In this document: positions 1 through 60,477 of the stretch, in pieces
Layout of the letters: the number at the start of each line of letters is the position of its first letter
Position numbering within the stretch: the stretch's first letter is position 1
Position numbers and translations under genes: made by a program
Notes under the pieces: generated by a model
Databases searched by the model: none
What the model was told of the DNA's origin: nothing
What the model saw: only the letters and a program-made list of their open reading frames with translations
Virus record (IMG/VR): IMGVR_UViG_3300043407_000092
Span: 1 to 60,477 of that record
Source: a virus
Taxonomy: Duplodnaviria; Caudoviricetes
Strand: one strand, 5' to 3'
Length of the DNA: 60,477 nt

Positions 1-127
1 TCGGCAGTTAGTTGGTCGTCAGACAATTTACTGACAACATCAGGCGTAACTTCTCCGCGAGCTAAAACGGCTGGTTGTCGCGTTGTTTGCGGTCTTTGCG
101 TTTCTGTTTGCTGGGCTTGAGCGGCTT
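1..127. repeat. 127-bp exact terminal overlap (identical to 60351-60477); circular assembly
   Basis: Bases 1-127 match 60351-60477 exactly. 127 is a typical assembler k-mer, and a reading frame runs through the join. Confidence 0.95.
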
Positions 128-1931
128 TAGCGGCATTAGCAACTTCCAATACGGTCATGGGTTTAGGAGCACGTCTAAATTTAGATGTAGACGCGGGAGG
201 AGCTGTCAGGTCGACAGATTGATCTGTAACCACGGGCGCAGCAGTTGTAACTACAGGAGCCGCAGTTGTAACTACAGGGGCAGCTGATTGACCGCTGGTA
301 TCTGGAAGAACACCAGCTTGTTGAACTGGGGCTCCAGTTCCGGGGGTAGTTCCACCAACTGTTCCTTGGACAGGAGTAGCTGATCCTGCAGCTCCCACAA
401 CTCCCGGAACGACAGCGCCCCCAGCTCCCACGCCTGCTGAAACTCCTGATCCAGTAGAAATTGGTGCGCTGACATTTGTAGCTCCTTGAGTAGCAGCACT
501 CATAGCGTTGATGATGTTCTGAACCGCAGCCTGTTTTATCAGTTTTTCCGCTTGTTTAAATTTATTTTGTGCAAGCGTTGTACGAACTGAATCTAGTTGT
601 TCTTGAGTTAGCTTAGCTTCCATCAACTTTGGTAGCAGCGTTAAGGTCTTGCCGGATGGGCTAATTCCCATCGAAAGCAGTTGTTCCTCATCTGCGCTAA
701 AAATTTTAGAAGCTGCGGGAGCAGTAGAACCAGCAGAAACAGGAGGCACAAGCGTAGCCCCCAGAGGAGCAGTTCCAGCAGGAGTAGTTCCAGCAGGAGT
801 AGTTAAATCAGTTTCCTGAGTTAGCAACGATGCCGTTGTTGGTTGAGCAGGATTACCAAACGCACTTAAACCAGCAGGATAAGTGCCGCCTAACAAATTA
901 GAATTAGCGTATGGGTTACCCATCAAAGCCGCAGGATCGGTTCCTGTAATGCTTTTGCCAAGAGGGGTTGGAGTATCCGGCTGAGTTAAATCAATAGCGC
1001 CTTCTTCTGGACGACTAGAGCGCAGGCCGCCTACACCACCAAAGACACCACCTAGGGCTGCACCACCAACGAACGAATCCAAGTAGCGCTTATTGGCAGC
1101 TTCATTAAACAGAGTTTCGTTGGGATCAACCGCCATACGACCGGCGTACTGGTTAATAATTTCTTGGCCAGTTTCGCTTAGACCTTCAGCCACAGCAGTA
1201 GTCGGTACAGCCACAGCGAGCCTACGAGCAAGACCGCCTTCACCTTGGATCAGAGGACGCATACCGCGGGCAAGCTGGCCCTCAATACCAAGGGCATTCA
1301 ACGCAGCGTACGGAACACCGCCAAGAGTAGCAGCACCTAGGTTTTCACCGCCGGCATCGCGTTGAGCAGACAAAATATCACCTACAGCACTTGGATAGCT
1401 AGCGCCTACAGCACCCGCAGTACTAGCGGCGGCACGAGTCAAACCCATACGGGCAGCAGTACCGCCAAGGGCTAAGCCACCTGTAAGACCGCCGACAACA
1501 GCTTCACCCAAGTATGGGAGGGACTGAGCAGCAAGACCGCCAATGTAATTTAAACCAGTGCCAATGCCGGTAACATCTCTAAAATCTTCAATACCGCCAA
1601 GGTCACGAGCGCGTTGGGCCGCGTAAGCAGCAGCACTTTCATTAGCCTCACGGCGAGCGTCAAACGCAGCAGCAGTATCAGTAGCACCGACTTTTCGAGC
1701 AACAGCACCGCCAAGGCCCAAAAGGTTTGCTTGATACTGGTCAATACCAGCAGAGACTCGACTACCGGCAAGGCCGCGCCCTGCACCGCTGTAACCTATT
1801 TCAGAAGCGTACGCATCAAGAGATGGGTAGTAACTTTTGTAATTTTGAAACGTACTCTGTAGAATGTCTTCATCAGTTAGATTTTCAAGACCACCGTTAG
1901 CTTTACGAATGTCTGCAATGGAACGTGGCAT
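1..1931 (-). CDS. N-terminal part of giant polyvalent internal virion/ejection protein (~2642 aa in total; continues at 60350-54353)
   Basis: Manual translation from ATG 1931 (MPRSIADIRKANGGLENLTDEDILQ...) is open to base 1 and ends ...KLSDDQLTAE, joining the track ORF MSDDQLTAE. It has Gly/Ala-rich hydrophobic segments and an AEGLSETGQE motif typical of large podophage internal proteins. Confidence 0.9.
   Translation of the reverse strand, partial: MPRSIADIRKANGGLENLTDEDILQSTFQNYKSYYPSLDAYASEIGYSGAGRGLAGSRVSAGIDQYQANLLGLGGAVARKVGATDTAAAFDARREANESAAAYAAQRARDLGGIEDFRDVTGIGTGLNYIGGLAAQSLPYLGEAVVGGLTGGLALGGTAARMGLTRAAASTAGAVGASYPSAVGDILSAQRDAGGENLGAATLGGVPYAALNALGIEGQLARGMRPLIQGEGGLARRLAVAVPTTAVAEGLSETGQEIINQYAGRMAVDPNETLFNEAANKRYLDSFVGGAALGGVFGGVGGLRSSRPEEGAIDLTQPDTPTPLGKSITGTDPAALMGNPYANSNLLGGTYPAGLSAFGNPAQPTTASLLTQETDLTTPAGTTPAGTAPLGATLVPPVSAGSTAPAASKIFSADEEQLLSMGISPSGKTLTLLPKLMEAKLTQEQLDSVRTTLAQNKFKQAEKLIKQAAVQNIINAMSAATQGATNVSAPISTGSGVSAGVGAGGAVVPGVVGAAGSATPVQGTVGGTTPGTGAPVQQAGVLPDTSGQSAAPVVTTAAPVVTTAAPVVTDQSVDLTAPPASTSKFRRAPKPMTVLEVANAAKAAQAQQTETQRPQTTRQPAVLARGEVTPDVVSKLSDDQLTA
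226..283 (-). repeat. 21-nt tandem repeat encoding APVVTTA (about 3 copies) in the giant protein linker
   Basis: gcagttgtaactacagg occurs at 241 and 262, with a degenerate third copy. Confidence 0.8.
272..475 (-). CDS. Nested +1-frame small protein A (67 aa, MSAHQFLLDQEFQQAWELGALSFRELWELQDQLLL...)
   Basis: AAGGAG (482-487) lies 6 nt before ATG 475. The product is helical and protein-like, while the host frame here is low-complexity G/A/V/P/T linker. Confidence 0.7.
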   Translation of the reverse strand: MSAHQFLLDQEFQQAWELGALSFRELWELQDQLLLSKEQLVELPPELEPQFNKLVFFQIPAVNQLPL

Positions 1932-1940
1932 AAAAGCACC

Positions 1941-3560
1941 TTACTGGTTCTGCAACTGGTTGTACTGTTCCGTTGTATAACGTTTTTTGGTCAGTGGATC
2001 AGTGTAGAAGTATTCTACGCCGCCAAACATTCCGCGTCGAGACTCTCGTAAAAAGTCTTCTAGAGGACCGCGAACAGCAGCTCCCGGAACTGTCATGCGA
2101 GATTCACCGGGTCGAACTTCAATTGGAGCAGTAGCTAGGCCAAGACCTTTTTTCTTATTGGCGGCTTGTAAGGCCGCGTCTTCGTTTCCTGCGGCAGGGC
2201 CGCGGCCATATAGTAAATCAGCTTCTATTTTAGCGGCTGGGTAAGACAAACCAGTATCAGTAAAACTTTTGATAGTGGCTGCGTAATCTTTAGGTGTGAA
2301 CTCAGGCTTTACTGCAGCGCCAAGAGACAACTGCCTACCGGGGCCAGCAGATGCCATGTTGTAGCTAGTTATCAGAGCTCGGCCTTTTGTGCCAATTTTT
2401 TCTTCGGGCGTAAGCGCGTCAAACTCTTCCTGAATTTTATCAAGCTTGGCTATCGTCGCAGAATCTCGTTTGAGTCCTCCAGCACGAACATTAGACAGAT
2501 TAGCCGCAGCGTTAGAAGCAACAATAGCCGCGCCCTGCGCATCAATAGCACTTTCTACTTTACGCAAGTTCATCATCCAAGAGCCTATGGTCTCAGGTTC
2601 AGTGGCTTGTTTATTTAAGTACTCAGTAGCTAGGGCTTCGTTTTTAAACGTCTGAGTGCCTGTAATGCGTTTACTTGCTTTGTCAATAAAGTTTAGAGTA
2701 ACTGCGCCGCCTTTACCGGGCACAATGGCTAAGTCAGTTTTGTCGTCAAAGTCTGGGTCAGAGTTGTAAAGCGAGCCAAGCTGAGTAAGGTTTTTGCCTT
2801 GTAGCTTCTTTTTAATATTGTTTTTAAAACTATCCATCTCAGCGTTTTCAATGCCCAAACGTGTAGTTACAGTCTCTTGCCACTGCTTTGGAGTAAATTT
2901 AAATTGTGTAAATGCAGCTTTTTTTAGTTCTTCTACTGTAGCGTCAGGACGTTCGGCAGCGAAGTTAGCAAAACCAGAAGCATTTTGCAATTCAGTTTCA
3001 GTACGATTAGCAGCTTTAATTTGAAGGCCGGTAAGGTCTCTCTGTTGAGCTTGGCCAGCAATTTGGCCTTTTACACTTTCTAATTGCAGAGGGCGATACT
3101 TAGCGTTGTAATCAATATCATCCGCTTGCTGCAAAAGCTGAGAAGCCCGAACAGGATCGCCGCTAGCACCAAGAACGCGGGCAGCTTCACGCATTTGTAA
3201 ACCGCGAATTTGGTCAGGCGAAAACTGGCCGGCTACTGTTTGACCGCCGTACCGCTGAACTTGTTGAGGGGCAAACTCTGTAGGAGGCGCAGGCATATCA
3301 CCCTGAAGGTCAAGCCCTTGTTTTGGGGTGTAACGAAGCGTAGGAGCTTGACCTGGGGCACCGGGCATAGCTTCAACGTCATAAGCTCCCGTTTCTTGCA
3401 ACCGTTGAATTTCTTTTGTTTGTTCTGGCGTGTAGTCAACATATGACTCAGGTTGAGCATAGGCTTTAGCCAAGCCACGTTTTAGCTCGTCTTCTTCGCG
3501 CATTTTAAGACCGCGCTCAACCGCTTGTGCGCCTACTTGGAATCCTGCTGCGAAACCCAT
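1941..3560 (-). CDS. Putative internal virion/DNA ejection protein
   Basis: Long helical Ala/Gln-rich ORF starting MGFAAGFQVG after GGAGG, located between the pilot-like protein and the giant protein. Confidence 0.7.
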   Translation of the reverse strand: MGFAAGFQVGAQAVERGLKMREEDELKRGLAKAYAQPESYVDYTPEQTKEIQRLQETGAYDVEAMPGAPGQAPTLRYTPKQGLDLQGDMPAPPTEFAPQQVQRYGGQTVAGQFSPDQIRGLQMREAARVLGASGDPVRASQLLQQADDIDYNAKYRPLQLESVKGQIAGQAQQRDLTGLQIKAANRTETELQNASGFANFAAERPDATVEELKKAAFTQFKFTPKQWQETVTTRLGIENAEMDSFKNNIKKKLQGKNLTQLGSLYNSDPDFDDKTDLAIVPGKGGAVTLNFIDKASKRITGTQTFKNEALATEYLNKQATEPETIGSWMMNLRKVESAIDAQGAAIVASNAAANLSNVRAGGLKRDSATIAKLDKIQEEFDALTPEEKIGTKGRALITSYNMASAGPGRQLSLGAAVKPEFTPKDYAATIKSFTDTGLSYPAAKIEADLLYGRGPAAGNEDAALQAANKKKGLGLATAPIEVRPGESRMTVPGAAVRGPLEDFLRESRRGMFGGVEYFYTDPLTKKRYTTEQYNQLQNQ

Positions 3561-54352: not shown

Positions 54353-57300
54353 TTAATCTCCTGCGATTTCTTCAGCTAGTTTACGGGTTCCTTTGGTGTA
54401 CTGCACACCGCCAACCGTCATACGCTCGCGTTTAGCTTGCTCTTGCGGTGCTTTTAGTAAGTCAGAAAACGGCTGCAACTTAAGACCATTTTCTTGTCGA
54501 GCTTTTTGAAGTTTCGTCCACGCCTCACGAGCTGACTGTTTAGCAGCAGCATCGTTGTTCTTAACAGCCTTAACATAGTCGTTTTTAACACGAGTCGTGC
54601 GCTCTTGGAAGTTTTCAGTAACATCACGCATGCGATTTTGTCGCTCATAAGTTACAGTTTCTTTAACAGACGGAACACCAAGACCGGTCAAAATGGCAGA
54701 AATTGCACTAATCTCTTCTGCGGGTAACACTACATCACCGTTACGGCGAGTCATACCTTCAGCAGCTTGGCGTCCAGCTTTGAGCGCGTCGGATACACCC
54801 TTGGGCATAGTGCGCTCAATACCTTTGTAGTAATCGCCACTGAGAATCAACCCCATGCCATCGGCTACACGAGATACCATACCTAACGATGCGCCCCCTA
54901 CTAGAGTGCCAAATGCTTCTGCACGGCCAGCCGTTGTGCTGAGATCGGCGTCACTAAATGGCATGATAGAAAGCATATTGCCGGAGCCAATCTTACCTGA
55001 CAGATCAACGCCTACTAATGTAGGAGCGCCGCGCATAATAAGATCAGACCACTCAGGACCAAGAGCCTTCCGCATATCTGCTGTCAAATCATAAGGGTCG
55101 TCTTCGTCACTGAACGCTTTAAGTAGAAAAGCAACAGCCGCATAACCAGGCAATCCCATCATGCCAGCAAAAACTGCGGAATGACCTAATGAAAAAGCCA
55201 GTGTGCGCATGGCAGCAGCCCGCTCGGCGGGATTTGTAAACGCATCGCGCAACAGTTTGGCGTAGAACGCAATCTGAATTAATTGGAACTTGCGGAACTG
55301 CAGTGCAACCTTACCCCACTGGCTGTTAAAAACGCGAGGTGCATTCATAGCAGTGTAGTCACCATGGGTATCAGTCAGGATATCAGCAGCGTACTGCGTA
55401 GCCTTTTCAGCATCCTTAGTTCGTGCAAACTCCAAACGGTATGCAGCAATGGCCGTAGACAGACGATTGGTAGCTTCCACTTTCTGGACAGCCAGTCGCA
55501 TGCTCTTGTTTAAACGTTGTGCAAACTTACCTAGCTTGCTATCAGCATCAACCTTGTACTCGTTAATTTCAGTGGCTAAGCCAATGTCAATCTGCCCTTG
55601 GTTAACGAGTTTGGTAATTGCTGCGCGTACATCAGCAGGAACTTTTGAAAAGTCAAACTGTTGGTCAAACAACTTAATGTCTTTAAACAGTGGGCCAAGT
55701 TCAGCGTACGCATCAAACAAAGCTTTGCCTGCCTTAGTGTAGTCATGGCGGCCAGCCAGTGCAGGCAGAGACATCATGAATGGCTGTGTCAAATTCTGCA
55801 TGTAATACGCAGGACTAGAAGCCAAGAAGTACTTAGAAGCCGTGTTAGTCAGGCCAGTAATAAAACCATTGCCCTTGGTTTCTAAAGACTCCACATAACG
55901 CTTGGTTAGTTCGTCAAAGATTTCTGATTTGCGTTCGCGGTTTCCGCCTCGGCGATCATTACGCATTTGCTGCAATGCATCTTGGATCAACGGCTCAAAC
56001 TCTACGTTAGCAAGGAAGTTGGCATCAGCGCGACCCTGACGAGTAAACGACTGCAGCATATCCACTTCACCAGCTACCCCACGACGACGCATCTCAGACT
56101 TGCGAGCACTACCCTCTGCCAACGCCTCCAAGTACAACTGGTTAACGATGTTTAACAGCTTGCTGCGACTAGAATCATCGCGTTTGTCAACCGCAGCACG
56201 AATTTTGGTCAACGCTGGCAAAAGCGCCTCACCGCTAAAGGCTTCTTCAAATGCCGTAGCTCGCTTAACAATATCTGGCTTGGTAAATACACCTTGGTCA
56301 GTTAGGTTGTCGCTAAGGGTACGTGCCGCCCACTTGGTATCAACAAAGCTAACATGGTAGTGGTCTGGGTCGGACTCAAGTTGTTTGATACGTTTTGTAT
56401 CTTTAGCAATTTCGGCAGCTTTGTACTCTGCAGATTTACCAATGACAACGTACGCACCGTCACGCTTAATAGGTGCATAGGGTTTACCCTCACGAATAGC
56501 AAACAATGTTTGGAATCGTTTAAGCGTGGCAACTTTTTCAGCTTTAAGCGCTGCTAGTTCCCCTTCAGCTTTTTGTTTTTCCTTGGCATCTGTTGCCGTG
56601 TTAACCATGTTCTGAGCTGCCTGAATCATGGCATCGTACTCAGAGTTTGCAGACTTCAAGACACTTTGTTTCTTTTGAGACAAAATCTTGTCACCATGAG
56701 CAAACACGTTCTTAACAAACTTTTGAGCTTTGGGGCCTAGCTTGTCAAATGCATCACCCATTTTGTCATCGCGGTACTTGCCGTAACCCCACTTCAGAGT
56801 ACGAGTAGACTCAAACAAGAAGTCGTTAACACTACCGCGGCCAGCACCCTTGAACTCTGGTTCAATATCAGCGTAGCCATCTGCAATGCTTTCAATTTCA
56901 CGTTCAAACTCACTGACACGCGCTCTGCGTTGCGACAAAGCATCGGCAAAACTTTGAGCAGAAGTTAGCCCAGCGTCTACGGCACGTTTAATTAAGTCGC
57001 TTGTAAATACAACGTAGTCTAGGCCAGCGCCTGTTACGTCACCTAAAGCAAGAACAATATTGCGTACAGGAGACCGAGAAGCTTTAGGCAGCTTGGCAAT
57101 GTTGTTTTGGATTACCCCTTGGCTCGGCCTTGCCATTCTTAAAATTGCTGGCTGAAACGCCGTCGCCGACACTAAATCAATCTTTGCGCCGTCCCAATTG
57201 CGCCGTGCACGCTCCAAAGCGTGGCTGACATTTAAACCGCGCATACCATCTGTAAAAGGCGCATCGCCCGGGAATGTTACCTTGACGGTAATTTCTTTTT

Positions 57301-60300
57301 TGTACTTTGATTCTTCGTAGGATTTGGGGGCTTTCCCCATGCCCATTAACGAGTCTGGGGCGTTTCCATACGGAACGGCTGAAGTGATCCTTTGGGTTCC
57401 ACGATAGGCTTGAACTTGCGAGGATTCTGCTGTAGTTGCTGCGCCCGTTTGAGCATCTGCGCCACCTTTGTTTTGTTTTGCGGTTTCATCACTAGCCTCC
57501 ATAAAATCATAAGTAGCCGGTAGGTTATCTGCCAAATAGGCATTGCCTTCACGGGTGTTGTAAAAAGCCCAAAGCTGCGCAAAGACTTCCATGCGAGTCT
57601 CGTCAGCACTCATATTCTTAGTGTCGTTTCGGCTGTGGTCGAGAGGGTAGCCCATAGACCTTGTAAAGTCTGAATCTGGATTTTCAGCCATGTGAGTCAT
57701 AATTTCAGACACCACAGAACCCATAGGTTTAACAACACCTTTTTGAATAGTCAGATTAAACTCAGGCAGGCCAGAAAAAATACCACCTGTTGTAAACGCA
57801 GCATCTGCAATGTGGCCCAGCTCGTGATGAATAGCCCAGTTAGCTGCATCAGAATTAACCAGCATGCCAGAACGTACTGCCAAAGTCTGTTTACCGTCCA
57901 CCATCATAATGGCAGCGTCAAAGTCAACAGTGTCTGGGGCAACCATCCACAACTCAACGTCATCAATTACTTGACGAAGATCGTTATTTTCATAATGACT
58001 TAGCGCACTTTCAACGCCGGGAAATCTGCGCAGGCTAGCCTCGTCAGTAATTTGGCCATCAAACTTTAATGTTCCGGCAGTAACTTCAACCGTGTCGCCT
58101 TTAGTAAGACGTAAAACGCGGTTAACCGCTACATCAATAGTTTCTTCTTTACCCACTACATCAGCAGCTGCAACGCCTTTAGCGCCTTGGCCATCTTCAG
58201 TACGGGTCTCTGTGCGGGTCTCGGCAGCAAACATCTGAGCTGCTTGTTCTTGTGCATCAGGCACGACAAAAACCATACCGCCATCAAGATTGGCAATGTT
58301 GGGAGCAATCTCGTTAATAAAGGTGTCATGCTTGGTATTGATACAGCCATAGCTAACACGGTTGTCTGCTGCTGTAGGAGTATCTAATCGACCTAAACGA
58401 TTCTCAGACGGTGTGCTAGTGTCTGCAGCGTGGATGGCAATGTAGCCCGTGTAGTCTTTAGACTCAACCAAGATTAACTCTTGGCCACCAGCGTACGTAG
58501 ATGGTCTAGCTTTAAGAGTAAATTTACCAGCAGGGGTAACTTTTGCGCCGCCTTCCAAAGAAGACACAGCTTCCATCACGTCACCAGTATCTTTGCCGTA
58601 CAGCGTAGGGTCAGACAAAGCGTGTGAGCCATCTTCTTTAAAGATATGCAGCATGCCGTTTGGCTTGTCGGCAACCATAAACCATTTACCAGACTTCATT
58701 GCCACAGGAGCCATGGCTTCATACACGCTTTGAGCAGTCGGTGACATTTGAGCTTTAGCTACAGCAGGTACGGCTTGCGTTACTTCAATGGTCTGTTCAA
58801 ATGTTTTAGCAACGTTAAGAGCAAACGCATCTTTGGTAATGTTCGGGTTGAACACAATACCCATGGCAAGTACGCCTTCGGCCATTGATTTGATGATGCT
58901 ACGAATAGCACCTGCAACAGCTTCTGCACCTTGAGTAACATACTTGGTAATGTCCTCTTGTACTTTGCGTAAGAACTCAGCGCTGTCACGCTTCTCACCA
59001 TAGTGCTTTTCAAGACGATCAATCTGAGGCGCTGGTAGCGCGGCAACCTGTTGGGTAACCTGCTCATCAATGATGCGAGTTTCACCTTCAATGGTGACTG
59101 GCTCTTTAGTCAGCAACTGCTGCAAGCCCATCTCTTTGGCAACTGAGGGTTTACCATTAGTACGGACAGCTAAGTCAGTCAGGTAACCTTGCTCAAGCTT
59201 GTTTAACTGCTCGTACGGAACTAAGCCGGGTGTCTTAGCAGAAAGGTTTTCCCACAGGGCTTTGCCTCTATCTATTTGCTCTTCGGCTTGGCCTTGGGTT
59301 TGACCTTTGCTGGCAGGTTTTTCGGCACGCCGTACTTGGCCGCCCACTCTTTTGCCACCTTTGGTTTCTGACTGAACAGGTACGAGCGCTGTGCTTGTGA
59401 CTTGAACGGCATTTGTTTTCTCCAGTTTAGCCATCTGGACAGACAGCTCTTTTGTTTGACCGCTTTGAAAATCTACGGTTACGGTAGTTGCATCTCCGTC
59501 GCCAGAAAAACTTCTAACAATCCCAGTACCCAACTTGGGGTTTACTACAGTGTCGCCAACTTCAAAACCTTTGCGGTCAGCAGCGCGTTTAGCAGCGGCC
59601 TTAGCACGAAGTTTTTCAGCTTCAGCTTTTTTGGCGTCATCAGCATTGTTAACAGAAATTGATTCTGGCTCGGCCTCTTTAGCTGCTGCAACTAAATCAA
59701 CTTCACCATCCGTGTCTCCCAAACCAGCAGTTTCTTTAACTGCTGCTTGAGCGCGTTTTTCAACGGCGCGAACTTTGACAAGTTGTTCTGCCAATTTAGC
59801 ATTGAGCTCTTTTAGTTTGGCTTCATCAGTCTCAGCAGCCAAGGCTTCTAGTGTGGCATCAATTTCTTTTTGGAGCTTAGTAAAGCCTTCAACTTCAGAA
59901 GTACCAGCACCAGCAGTGTTTACAATATTTTCTAAGCCGCCCTCAATAGCTTCACTTTCACTAATTGCTGACGGTTGATTTTGCCCAAAAATCTCACGCT
60001 CAACGGCTGAACCTGTTACATCTTGTTCAAGTGGCGTAAATGCGTTTTTAATCTGCTCATCTGTTAGACCCAATTCGGTTCTGGCTTGCGCAACGCGAGC
60101 GGCACGAGCTTCAGCACCTGTAGCCCCTGCAATCTTCTGTATGGAAGAGCGAGTCAAACCATACTTGGCAGCAGCATTAGGCTCAGACATACCCATGCCA
60201 ATAACATCAAAGATAATATCGCCGTTGCGCTCACCAAAAATACGTTGTAACAAAACTTGACGTTCGTCCACAACAGGTGGATTACTGCGTTTAGTCTGTT

Positions 60301-60477
60301 CATCCTGCAACAACTTATATTCAGCGTCGCTAATGTTGATGTTTGTTAATTCGGCAGTTAGTTGGTCGTCAGACAATTTACTGACAACATCAGGCGTAAC
60401 TTCTCCGCGAGCTAAAACGGCTGGTTGTCGCGTTGTTTGCGGTCTTTGCGTTTCTGTTTGCTGGGCTTGAGCGGCTT
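54353..60477 (-). CDS. C-terminal part of giant polyvalent protein (HTH-like, Tudor, L,D-transpeptidase-like, zincin and PLxRFG domains)
   Basis: 2007-aa track ORF whose frame stays open through the junction to ATG 1931. Motifs: GDTVVNPKLGTG, IAIH...SYGCIN, HELGH, PYAPIKRDG. Confidence 0.9.
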   Translation of the reverse strand, partial: AAQAQQTETQRPQTTRQPAVLARGEVTPDVVSKLSDDQLTAELTNINISDAEYKLLQDEQTKRSNPPVVDERQVLLQRIFGERNGDIIFDVIGMGMSEPNAAAKYGLTRSSIQKIAGATGAEARAARVAQARTELGLTDEQIKNAFTPLEQDVTGSAVEREIFGQNQPSAISESEAIEGGLENIVNTAGAGTSEVEGFTKLQKEIDATLEALAAETDEAKLKELNAKLAEQLVKVRAVEKRAQAAVKETAGLGDTDGEVDLVAAAKEAEPESISVNNADDAKKAEAEKLRAKAAAKRAADRKGFEVGDTVVNPKLGTGIVRSFSGDGDATTVTVDFQSGQTKELSVQMAKLEKTNAVQVTSTALVPVQSETKGGKRVGGQVRRAEKPASKGQTQGQAEEQIDRGKALWENLSAKTPGLVPYEQLNKLEQGYLTDLAVRTNGKPSVAKEMGLQQLLTKEPVTIEGETRIIDEQVTQQVAALPAPQIDRLEKHYGEKRDSAEFLRKVQEDITKYVTQGAEAVAGAIRSIIKSMAEGVLAMGIVFNPNITKDAFALNVAKTFEQTIEVTQAVPAVAKAQMSPTAQSVYEAMAPVAMKSGKWFMVADKPNGMLHIFKEDGSHALSDPTLYGKDTGDVMEAVSSLEGGAKVTPAGKFTLKARPSTYAGGQELILVESKDYTGYIAIHAADTSTPSENRLGRLDTPTAADNRVSYGCINTKHDTFINEIAPNIANLDGGMVFVVPDAQEQAAQMFAAETRTETRTEDGQGAKGVAAADVVGKEETIDVAVNRVLRLTKGDTVEVTAGTLKFDGQITDEASLRRFPGVESALSHYENNDLRQVIDDVELWMVAPDTVDFDAAIMMVDGKQTLAVRSGMLVNSDAANWAIHHELGHIADAAFTTGGIFSGLPEFNLTIQKGVVKPMGSVVSEIMTHMAENPDSDFTRSMGYPLDHSRNDTKNMSADETRMEVFAQLWAFYNTREGNAYLADNLPATYDFMEASDETAKQNKGGADAQTGAATTAESSQVQAYRGTQRITSAVPYGNAPDSLMGMGKAPKSYEESKYKKEITVKVTFPGDAPFTDGMRGLNVSHALERARRNWDGAKIDLVSATAFQPAILRMARPSQGVIQNNIAKLPKASRSPVRNIVLALGDVTGAGLDYVVFTSDLIKRAVDAGLTSAQSFADALSQRRARVSEFEREIESIADGYADIEPEFKGAGRGSVNDFLFESTRTLKWGYGKYRDDKMGDAFDKLGPKAQKFVKNVFAHGDKILSQKKQSVLKSANSEYDAMIQAAQNMVNTATDAKEKQKAEGELAALKAEKVATLKRFQTLFAIREGKPYAPIKRDGAYVVIGKSAEYKAAEIAKDTKRIKQLESDPDHYHVSFVDTKWAARTLSDNLTDQGVFTKPDIVKRATAFEEAFSGEALLPALTKIRAAVDKRDDSSRSKLLNIVNQLYLEALAEGSARKSEMRRRGVAGEVDMLQSFTRQGRADANFLANVEFEPLIQDALQQMRNDRRGGNRERKSEIFDELTKRYVESLETKGNGFITGLTNTASKYFLASSPAYYMQNLTQPFMMSLPALAGRHDYTKAGKALFDAYAELGPLFKDIKLFDQQFDFSKVPADVRAAITKLVNQGQIDIGLATEINEYKVDADSKLGKFAQRLNKSMRLAVQKVEATNRLSTAIAAYRLEFARTKDAEKATQYAADILTDTHGDYTAMNAPRVFNSQWGKVALQFRKFQLIQIAFYAKLLRDAFTNPAERAAAMRTLAFSLGHSAVFAGMMGLPGYAAVAFLLKAFSDEDDPYDLTADMRKALGPEWSDLIMRGAPTLVGVDLSGKIGSGNMLSIMPFSDADLSTTAGRAEAFGTLVGGASLGMVSRVADGMGLILSGDYYKGIERTMPKGVSDALKAGRQAAEGMTRRNGDVVLPAEEISAISAILTGLGVPSVKETVTYERQNRMRDVTENFQERTTRVKNDYVKAVKNNDAAAKQSAREAWTKLQKARQENGLKLQPFSDLLKAPQEQAKRERMTVGGVQYTKGTRKLAEEIAGD
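57346..57489 (-). CDS. Nested +1-frame small protein C (47 aa, MKPQNKTKVAQMLKRAQQLQQNPRKFKP...)
   Basis: GGAGG (57496-57500) lies 6 nt before ATG 57489, right after the zincin domain. Confidence 0.55.
   Translation of the reverse strand: MKPQNKTKVAQMLKRAQQLQQNPRKFKPIVEPKGSLQPFRMETPQTR
59272..59412 (-). CDS. Nested +1-frame small basic protein B (46 aa, MPFKSQAQRSYLFSQKPKVAKEWAAKYG...)
   Basis: GGAG (59420-59423) lies 7 nt before ATG 59412. The sequence resembles free-standing small phage proteins beginning MPFKS.AQR..L...P.VAK.W. Confidence 0.75.
   Translation of the reverse strand: MPFKSQAQRSYLFSQKPKVAKEWAAKYGVPKNLPAKVKPKAKPKSK
60351..60477. repeat. 127-bp terminal overlap (copy of 1-127)
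   Basis: Exact identity with the window start. Confidence 0.95.

Follow-up and report, generated by a model that had tools for sequence, protein, structure and literature searches.

Evidence for a Conserved Small Gene Nested in the +1 Frame of a PLxRFG Giant Gene of an Uncultured Freshwater Tailed Phage

The IMG/VR virus record IMGVR_UViG_3300043407_000092 (60,477 nucleotides; the whole of this stretch is hereafter termed the window) derives from an uncultured freshwater tailed phage and includes a giant gene for a PLxRFG domain-containing protein. Sequence comparisons indicate that a small open reading frame (ORF) on the minus strand, running from window position 475 to 272 and termed gene A here, is very probably a real protein-coding gene that lies within the giant one in its +1 frame. 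Two bodies of evidence carry this view: the start signals, length and end of A are maintained among related loci, and the bases shared by the two frames vary with the codon rhythm of the nested frame.

The start region reads ACT CAA GGA GCT ACA AAT GTC AGC on the minus strand, in which the spacer CTACAA (481-476) separates AAGGAG (487-482) from the ATG (475-473). The two features are as follows.

482..487, minus strand: Shine-Dalgarno (SD) sequence AAGGAG of nested gene A, read directly, 6 nt before the ATG
272..475, minus strand: nested gene A, 67 codons, with ATG at 475-473 and stop codon TAG at 274-272

The start of A is 1456 nt into the giant ORF, and as 1456 mod 3 = 1, A lies in the +1 frame, where it overlies main-frame residues 486-553. 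Over the same bases, the main frame encodes a stretch rich in Gly, Ala, Val, Pro, Thr and Ser. The A peptide is acidic (isoelectric point, pI, 4.22; 10 Asp plus Glu versus 3 Lys plus Arg), begins with the acidic and polar sequence MSAHQFLLDQEF, and includes no Cys, signal peptide or membrane segment. The original prediction, made from the letters of the window, had described exactly these elements, namely an AAGGAG placed 6 nt before an ATG at 475, an acidic 67-residue peptide opened by it in the +1 frame of a giant gene, and a Gly/Ala/Val/Pro/Thr linker in the main frame; letters and translations agree with it throughout. The giant gene itself is also real, as joining the ends of the window gives one uninterrupted ORF of 7929 nt.

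Conservation of the Nested Gene

A search with the first 643 residues of the giant protein finds two viral and six metagenomic loci at 30-39% identity. At seven of these eight loci, no stop interrupts the +1 frame across the homologous stretch, the end (..LPL*) is the same, and the nested peptides are 47-70% identical to that of the window. In each of the seven, an SD sequence precedes an ATG or GTG at the corresponding position, followed by 66-67 codons. The SD sequence is kept despite differing main-frame residues across the site (QG, KE, QE and KG); in one lineage with a 6-nt deletion in the main frame, AAGGAG is re-formed from other codons. Alignments of the nested peptide add 32, 21 and 21 more loci on viral contigs, nine of which are repeats of contigs already counted.

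A hidden Markov model (HMM) of the family matches 80 of 81 loci, with an ORF of 65-68 codons at the same place. The start codons of these 80 loci are ATG (47), GTG (31) and TTG (2), and the locus set includes 49 distinct combinations of upstream sequence and length. An SD-like motif is present 5-7 nt upstream of the start in 75 of the 80 loci, compared with 2.8% of 8784 control ATG/GTG sites in the same loci; motifs of at least 5 nt occur in 52 of the 80 loci and at 0.8% of the control sites. Distinct nucleotide sequences number 34 in the clade of the window and 30 in a more divergent set of loci. At all 34 divergent loci examined, A is in the +1 frame of an ORF whose open length, 675-1730 codons, is bounded by the extent of the locus itself. 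Homologues without the SD-ATG, or with stops in the +1 frame, and conserved in the main frame only, had been named as the finding that would speak against the original prediction; the outcome is the opposite, with ORF, start and stop kept in 80 of 81 loci. One locus, L042, has a 13-codon deletion inside A, and both frames stay open.

Chance has to be weighed first, because a linker rich in Gly, Ala, Val and Pro rarely yields off-frame stops, and the +1 frame might thus be open by composition, the seemingly helical peptide being a shifted reading of the linker and the SD-ATG a coincidence. The Leu/Glu/Gln-rich A peptide is indeed the expected look of GGA, GCT, GTG and GCA codons read one base later. 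Six stretches of at least 75 codons (109, 87, 83, 81, 75 and 75) are open in the +1 frame of the giant gene, that is, five besides the one at A, and the +2 frame over the linker is open for 124 codons. When synonymous codons are shuffled 2000 times with the giant protein and its codon usage retained, a +1 stretch of at least 75 codons overlaps the place of A in 23.7% of the shuffles, and 98.5% of them contain such a stretch at some position of the gene. The start context is unusual, as AAGGAG-N4-9-ATG occurs only six times in the genome on both strands, and the real genes of the phage use AAGGA-type SD sites at similar spacing; yet for a whole-genome scan this context is only suggestive. It is conservation in relatives that raises A above chance. 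Start, SD sequence, length and stop are kept together in 80 of 81 loci, the SD frequency is 94% versus 2.8% at control sites, and the open stretch of the third frame is shorter than 67 codons at 22 of the 34 divergent loci, where the +1 frame stays open. Very recent ancestry does not dominate this pattern, the N-terminal part of the giant protein being only 30-39% identical at loci L003-L010. With the switch in codon-position variability exactly at the ORF borders and the contrast in substitution ratios described below, a chance ORF is hardly credible.

Selection on the Two Frames

Nucleotide diversity was calculated by main-frame codon position in 20-codon windows for the 34 distinct sequences of the window's clade. 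Outside the ORF, main-frame position 3 is the most variable everywhere (approximately 0.6-0.7). In alignment columns 686-753, which correspond to the ORF, position 3 falls to 0.11-0.23 and becomes the least variable, and position 1 is the most variable (0.26-0.35). This is the periodicity of the +1 frame, because main-frame position 1 is the wobble position of the nested codons. The edges of the switch are sharp, and five full-length genes show the same switch at A.

Nei-Gojobori counts of nonsynonymous (pN) and synonymous (pS) differences over the shared bases of 561 sequence pairs give the following values.

Nested (+1) frame: pN 0.161, pS 0.416, pN/pS 0.39; pN < pS in 561 of 561 pairs
Main frame: pN 0.239, pS 0.161, pN/pS 1.49; pN < pS in 33 of 561 pairs
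+2 frame: pN 0.225, pS 0.193, pN/pS 1.16; pN < pS in 188 of 561 pairs

Amino-acid identity averages 74% for the nested frame versus 59% for the main frame. In five well-separated lineages, identical main-frame residues also share the same codon in 81% of cases within the ORF, compared with 50% beyond it. A comparison of conservation and substitution ratios in both frames had been proposed as a check on the nested gene; its result is that the nested frame is the constrained one. Codon periodicity, pN/pS and codon identity all favour the +1 frame, and the linker thus appears to be shaped by selection on the overlapping gene, as had been suggested. Purifying selection over the shared bases acts mainly on the nested frame, and the Gly/Ala/Val/Pro/Thr linker of the giant protein is largely a passive read-out of nested Leu/Glu/Gln/Trp codons. 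In the divergent, GC-richer set, the canonical order of diversity at codon positions, 2 < 1 < 3 (0.335, 0.443 and 0.454), is seen in the nested frame only, and pN/pS in the main frame is 1.25 (pN < pS in 39 of 435 pairs).

Constraint on the nucleic acid itself, such as an RNA structure for translation control or a recombination or packaging signal in the DNA, would make all frames look conserved. Diversity does drop at all three codon positions inside the stretch, and the unusual conservation of main-frame synonymous codons (81% versus 50% outside) is in line with such an element. However, the variation that is left is three-base periodic in the +1 register, with position 2 < 1 < 3, and the encoded protein keeps its length, hydrophobic pattern, start and C-terminal motif at a mean column identity of 33% among 55 clusters. 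In addition, a deeper alignment of the protein raises the confidence of its AlphaFold2 (AF2) model from 61.7 to 78.8. A nucleic-acid element is thus a very improbable explanation of the constraint.

The open +2 frame extends over window positions 184-555 on the minus strand (gene nt 1376-1748), and its translation is rich in Cys, Arg and Ser. As this frame is often interrupted in relatives and is devoid of coding periodicity, it appears to be a by-product of composition.

Translation of the Nested Gene

Ribosomes would start independently at the internal SD sequence and ATG on the late mRNA of the giant gene. Because initiation would be internal to that mRNA, the small protein would be made together with the giant protein, when and where the latter is made.

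A different route to the same codons is a trans-frame product, in which ribosomes slip to the +1 frame near the SD-like site and synthesize a truncated protein of approximately 485 residues ending in the 67-residue domain. SD-like sequences inside genes can stimulate programmed frameshifting, as in prfB and dnaX, and the +1 frame is open for at least 24 codons upstream of the start in 56 of 80 loci. Nevertheless, an ATG, GTG or TTG start is present in all 80 ORF-bearing loci, and the SD sequence, where present (75 of 80), lies at the 5-7 nt spacing typical of initiation. A stop in the +1 frame directly precedes the start in 3 of 80 loci and lies within eight codons of it in 15 of 80; the +1 sequence shows no conservation before the start, and the first residues of the family are nearly always MSA. 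Independent initiation is favoured on these grounds, that is, because the start, the SD spacing and the MSA beginning are conserved, the upstream +1 sequence is not, and +1 stops occur near the start. A frameshift product is improbable.

Several observations weigh against a nested gene at this place or against any particular role for it. The length and openness of the ORF carry no weight as evidence. The RNA contigs of X18 map to the flanks of A alone (128-265 and 506-680) and are uninformative on translation. The 561 pairs are drawn from related sequences and hence are non-independent events. In the divergent set, the contrast between frames is weaker, with pN/pS of 0.72 in the nested frame (pN < pS in 416 of 435 pairs) and 0.78 in the +2 frame (389 of 435). 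One giant-gene homologue, on the 3.5-kb metagenome contig L008, has a much shorter linker and is without the A ORF, so in at least one lineage the giant protein can do without the linker. When A and two divergent relatives are compared with 50,697 GenBank phage records by tblastn, no match is found, and the family HMM reaches at best 7.0 bits against the giant genes of the phages RHph_TM3_14A and Parlo (E 0.043 in a tiny database). No Pfam, PHROG or NCBIfam family matches A; the best E-value among PDB sequences is 0.76, and Foldseek comparison of the A model with PDB and BFVD yields nothing at E ≤ 0.001 (best PDB E 3.5), such that nothing in these libraries backs any particular function.

A Second Nested Gene in the Giant Gene

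The same host gene holds another nested ORF, termed gene B, approximately 1.4 kb downstream of A.

59272..59412, minus strand: nested gene B, +1 frame, 46 codons (MPFKSQAQRSYLFSQKPK...), over main-frame residues 957-1004

The B peptide (MPFKSQAQRSYLFSQKPKVAKEWAAKYGVPKNLPAKVKPK...) is basic (pI 10.6), and GGAG lies 8 nt before its ATG. In the B region (main-frame residues approximately 950-1005), codon-position variability switches as at A, and the +1 peptide is conserved. In the five full-length genes, no sustained switch occurs anywhere in the gene besides those at A and B; elsewhere, the first and third positions are about equal in three isolated windows in highly diverged parts. B matches no Pfam or NCBIfam family and has only a weak match to phrog_1375 (E 0.047).

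Within the window's clade (L003-L042), B occurs at 36 of 40 loci; none of the 40 divergent loci (L043-L082) has it in the 3 kb downstream. A is thus more widespread than B, and an obligate pair of an acidic and a basic protein was rejected.

Family and Predicted Fold of the A Protein

A profile of 30 sequences was compared with 1.84 billion representative proteins clustered at 50% identity. Clusters at E ≤ 1e-3 number 58, of which 49 are 64-69 residues long, and seven reach E ≤ 1e-10. Most of the 55 cluster sequences retrieved start with MSA, and many end with N.LP[L/A/V]. The family consensus is MSA....L...L..AV..GALS..EAW.LQD..LL........P..L.P...RL.L......N.LP., in which L..AW/V..GALS..EAW.LQD is the conserved core and NxLP[L/A/V] the usual C-terminus. 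At locus L026, A has Thr instead of the conserved Ser of GALS. Longer fusion proteins carrying the A domain are absent from 8000 scored candidates, which is weak evidence. The ESM Atlas contains the A sequence letter for letter, and returns zero usable feature matches for it and only structure matches below the bar.

With an alignment of the 55 sequences, AF2 predicts helices at residues 10-17, 23-35 and 45-58 followed by an extended C-terminal tail, with a predicted local distance difference test score (pLDDT) of 78.8 and a predicted template modelling score (pTM) of 0.54; the pLDDT of 61.7 belongs to an alignment of eight sequences. The folded helical protein that had been suggested from the letters therefore stands as far as this model goes, prediction being its sole basis. 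The product of A would be a soluble, acidic three-helix protein of approximately 8 kDa with an extended C-terminal tail. The best match of the model in BFVD is A8HNW3, a viral protein of 110 residues (E 0.11; template modelling score 0.75 by query).

As for function, the leading guess, still a tentative one, is that A may assist the giant virion or ejection protein as an accessory partner, for example as a chaperone, a packaging or loading factor, or a gate of its activity, docking through the tail. That A is a small inhibitor of a host protein is the next guess and only slightly less likely; some other function accounts for the remainder. A predicted complex of A with the N-terminal 340 residues of the giant protein has a score of 0.00 and a mark of 0.32, which counts neither way for binding. 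The beta-clamp-binding consensus needs Q-L at its start. The C-terminal tail was considered as such a motif and dismissed, as the family has an invariant N.

Comparison with Known Nested Genes

In phage lambda, Rz1 is embedded in Rz in the +1 frame. Two reports on two-component spanins (PMC6139136, PMC5295617) describe such an embedded small gene inside a larger phage gene, which, like A, lies wholly within its host on the same strand and has its own start. Rz1 has a lipoprotein signal and lipobox Cys, whereas A is without Cys or signal peptide; the host of Rz1 is an i-spanin of approximately 150 residues, and that of A a virion-type PLxRFG protein of 2642 residues. In A and its giant gene, unlike Rz1 and Rz, the nested frame is the more constrained one. 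A role for A as an embedded o-spanin of the Rz1 type was discarded, since there is no lipobox Cys and the host gene is not an i-spanin.

Other overprinted phage genes include E in D and B in A of phiX174, and 19.2 and 19.3 inside gene 19 of T7. As in A, a second protein is made from an alternative frame in classical overprinting, and the older protein tends to be tolerant or disordered where it is overprinted. The classical cases are found in small compact genomes or are poorly conserved, doubtful ORFs, whereas A resides in a 60-kb genome and has at least 58 clusters at 50% identity; moreover, its host gene carries B as a second nested gene. Overprinting in viruses in general is the subject of a review (PMC8227390).

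The podophages of approximately 60 kb, Serratia phage Parlo, Erwinia phage PEp14, Klebsiella phage LASTA and Rhizobium phage RHph_TM3_14A, have annotated giant proteins 26-28% identical to the C-terminal 600 residues of that of the window. They are alike in genome size and in the position of the giant gene after the structural genes, and differ in that neither RHph_TM3_14A nor Parlo has a detectable member of the nested family in its giant gene. In phage P1, the small accessory protein Ulx is needed to load the giant injected protein DarB into the capsid. The likeness to A, that of a small protein produced alongside a giant injected one, is a functional analogy only, as Ulx is encoded by a separate upstream gene and has no sequence or fold link to A.

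Same-strand nested phage genes are thus of a kind already known; the A family and its place inside PLxRFG giant genes are new to the family libraries searched. A literature search at the level of abstracts, which excludes supplements and the small-ORF lists they may hold, found no nested gene in PLxRFG or giant phage genes. Two traits are unusual: selection acts predominantly on the nested frame, and a single giant gene carries two passengers. The A family is always nested in the same giant gene, and because gene callers forbid a gene wholly inside another, nested proteins of this kind are missing from phage annotations. Among large double-stranded DNA phages, A would be a textbook-quality case of overprinting, illustrating that a linker in a giant virion protein can look featureless and yet be the shadow of another gene, and A and B would add two unannotated proteins to a widespread freshwater phage group. 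A local switch in codon-position variability also provides a recipe for finding more nested genes in metagenomes.

In a broader and doubtful interpretation, the main purpose of this DNA stretch is the nested gene, the linker is a carrier dictated by the approximately 67-residue three-helix A protein, A is a dedicated partner of the PLxRFG ejection protein (a chaperone, a factor for loading it into the capsid or a gate of its activity) that docks via its N-x-L-P-[L/A/V] tail, and B is a second passenger. If this is true, giant genes of phages would quite generally conceal conserved small genes invisible to gene callers.

The Giant Gene and the Genome

The two ends of the window form a direct repeat of 127 bp (1-127 = 60351-60477), and the record is therefore a complete circular or circularly permuted genome of 60,350 bp. 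With the ends joined, the 7929-nt ORF encodes 2642 residues on the minus strand from an ATG at 1931. The gene spans the junction and so appears as two open-ended ORFs in the window.

128..1931, minus strand: 5' part of the giant gene, ATG at 1931, residues 1 to approximately 601
54353..60477, minus strand: 3' part of the giant gene, across the circular junction, with the C-terminal PLxRFG domain

The C-terminal 600 residues of the giant protein match NF032893 with 286.9 bits versus a cut-off of 100, over residues 1418-2018 of the 2040-residue piece encoded by the 3' part, and by this match the host gene is classed as a PLxRFG domain-containing giant phage protein. The giant protein also matches phrog_10089, 'DarB-like antirestriction', at 1.4e-57. 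Upstream neighbours of the giant gene are tail-fibre and internal-virion-protein genes. A DNA search of GenBank phages with window positions 1-2000 and a tblastn search of them with the N-terminal 643 residues of the giant protein gave no match; the nearest cultured capsid protein is that of Rhizobium phages (42% identity).

Two further regions of the 2040-residue piece have sub-threshold matches. Residues 274-353 (window approximately 59400-59620, minus strand) resemble the C-terminal Tudor-like domain of UvrD/PcrA (Pfam PF21196, E 0.009; NCBIfam UvrD/PcrA families, E 4.5e-06 to 4.8e-05, far below their full-length cut-offs). Residues 600-728 have a weak match to a YkuD L,D-transpeptidase (E 0.0011, 20 bits versus a cut-off of 23.4).

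Near-identical DNA is present in freshwater and lake metagenomes, and contigs of X4 and X5 match long pieces of the window without any mismatch; none of the variants seen in metagenome contigs lies within 272-475. L090, a contig of phage-genome size (60,447 bp) with a nested gene 71% identical to A, is binned in a metagenome-assembled genome of Phycisphaerales, which may be a weak hint of the host or a binning artefact.

A module travelling together with A was sought by correlating the similarities of gene segments; all segments correlate (rho 0.41-0.73), and this analysis was uninformative. The giant gene is a mosaic, in that similarity in the N-terminal domain and similarity in A disagree between relatives: L034 is 77% identical in the N-terminal domain and 59% in A, and the values for L011 are 44% and 82%. 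Among the genomes compared, the C-terminal PLxRFG part is 59-80% identical where the N-terminal part is approximately 30-50% identical.

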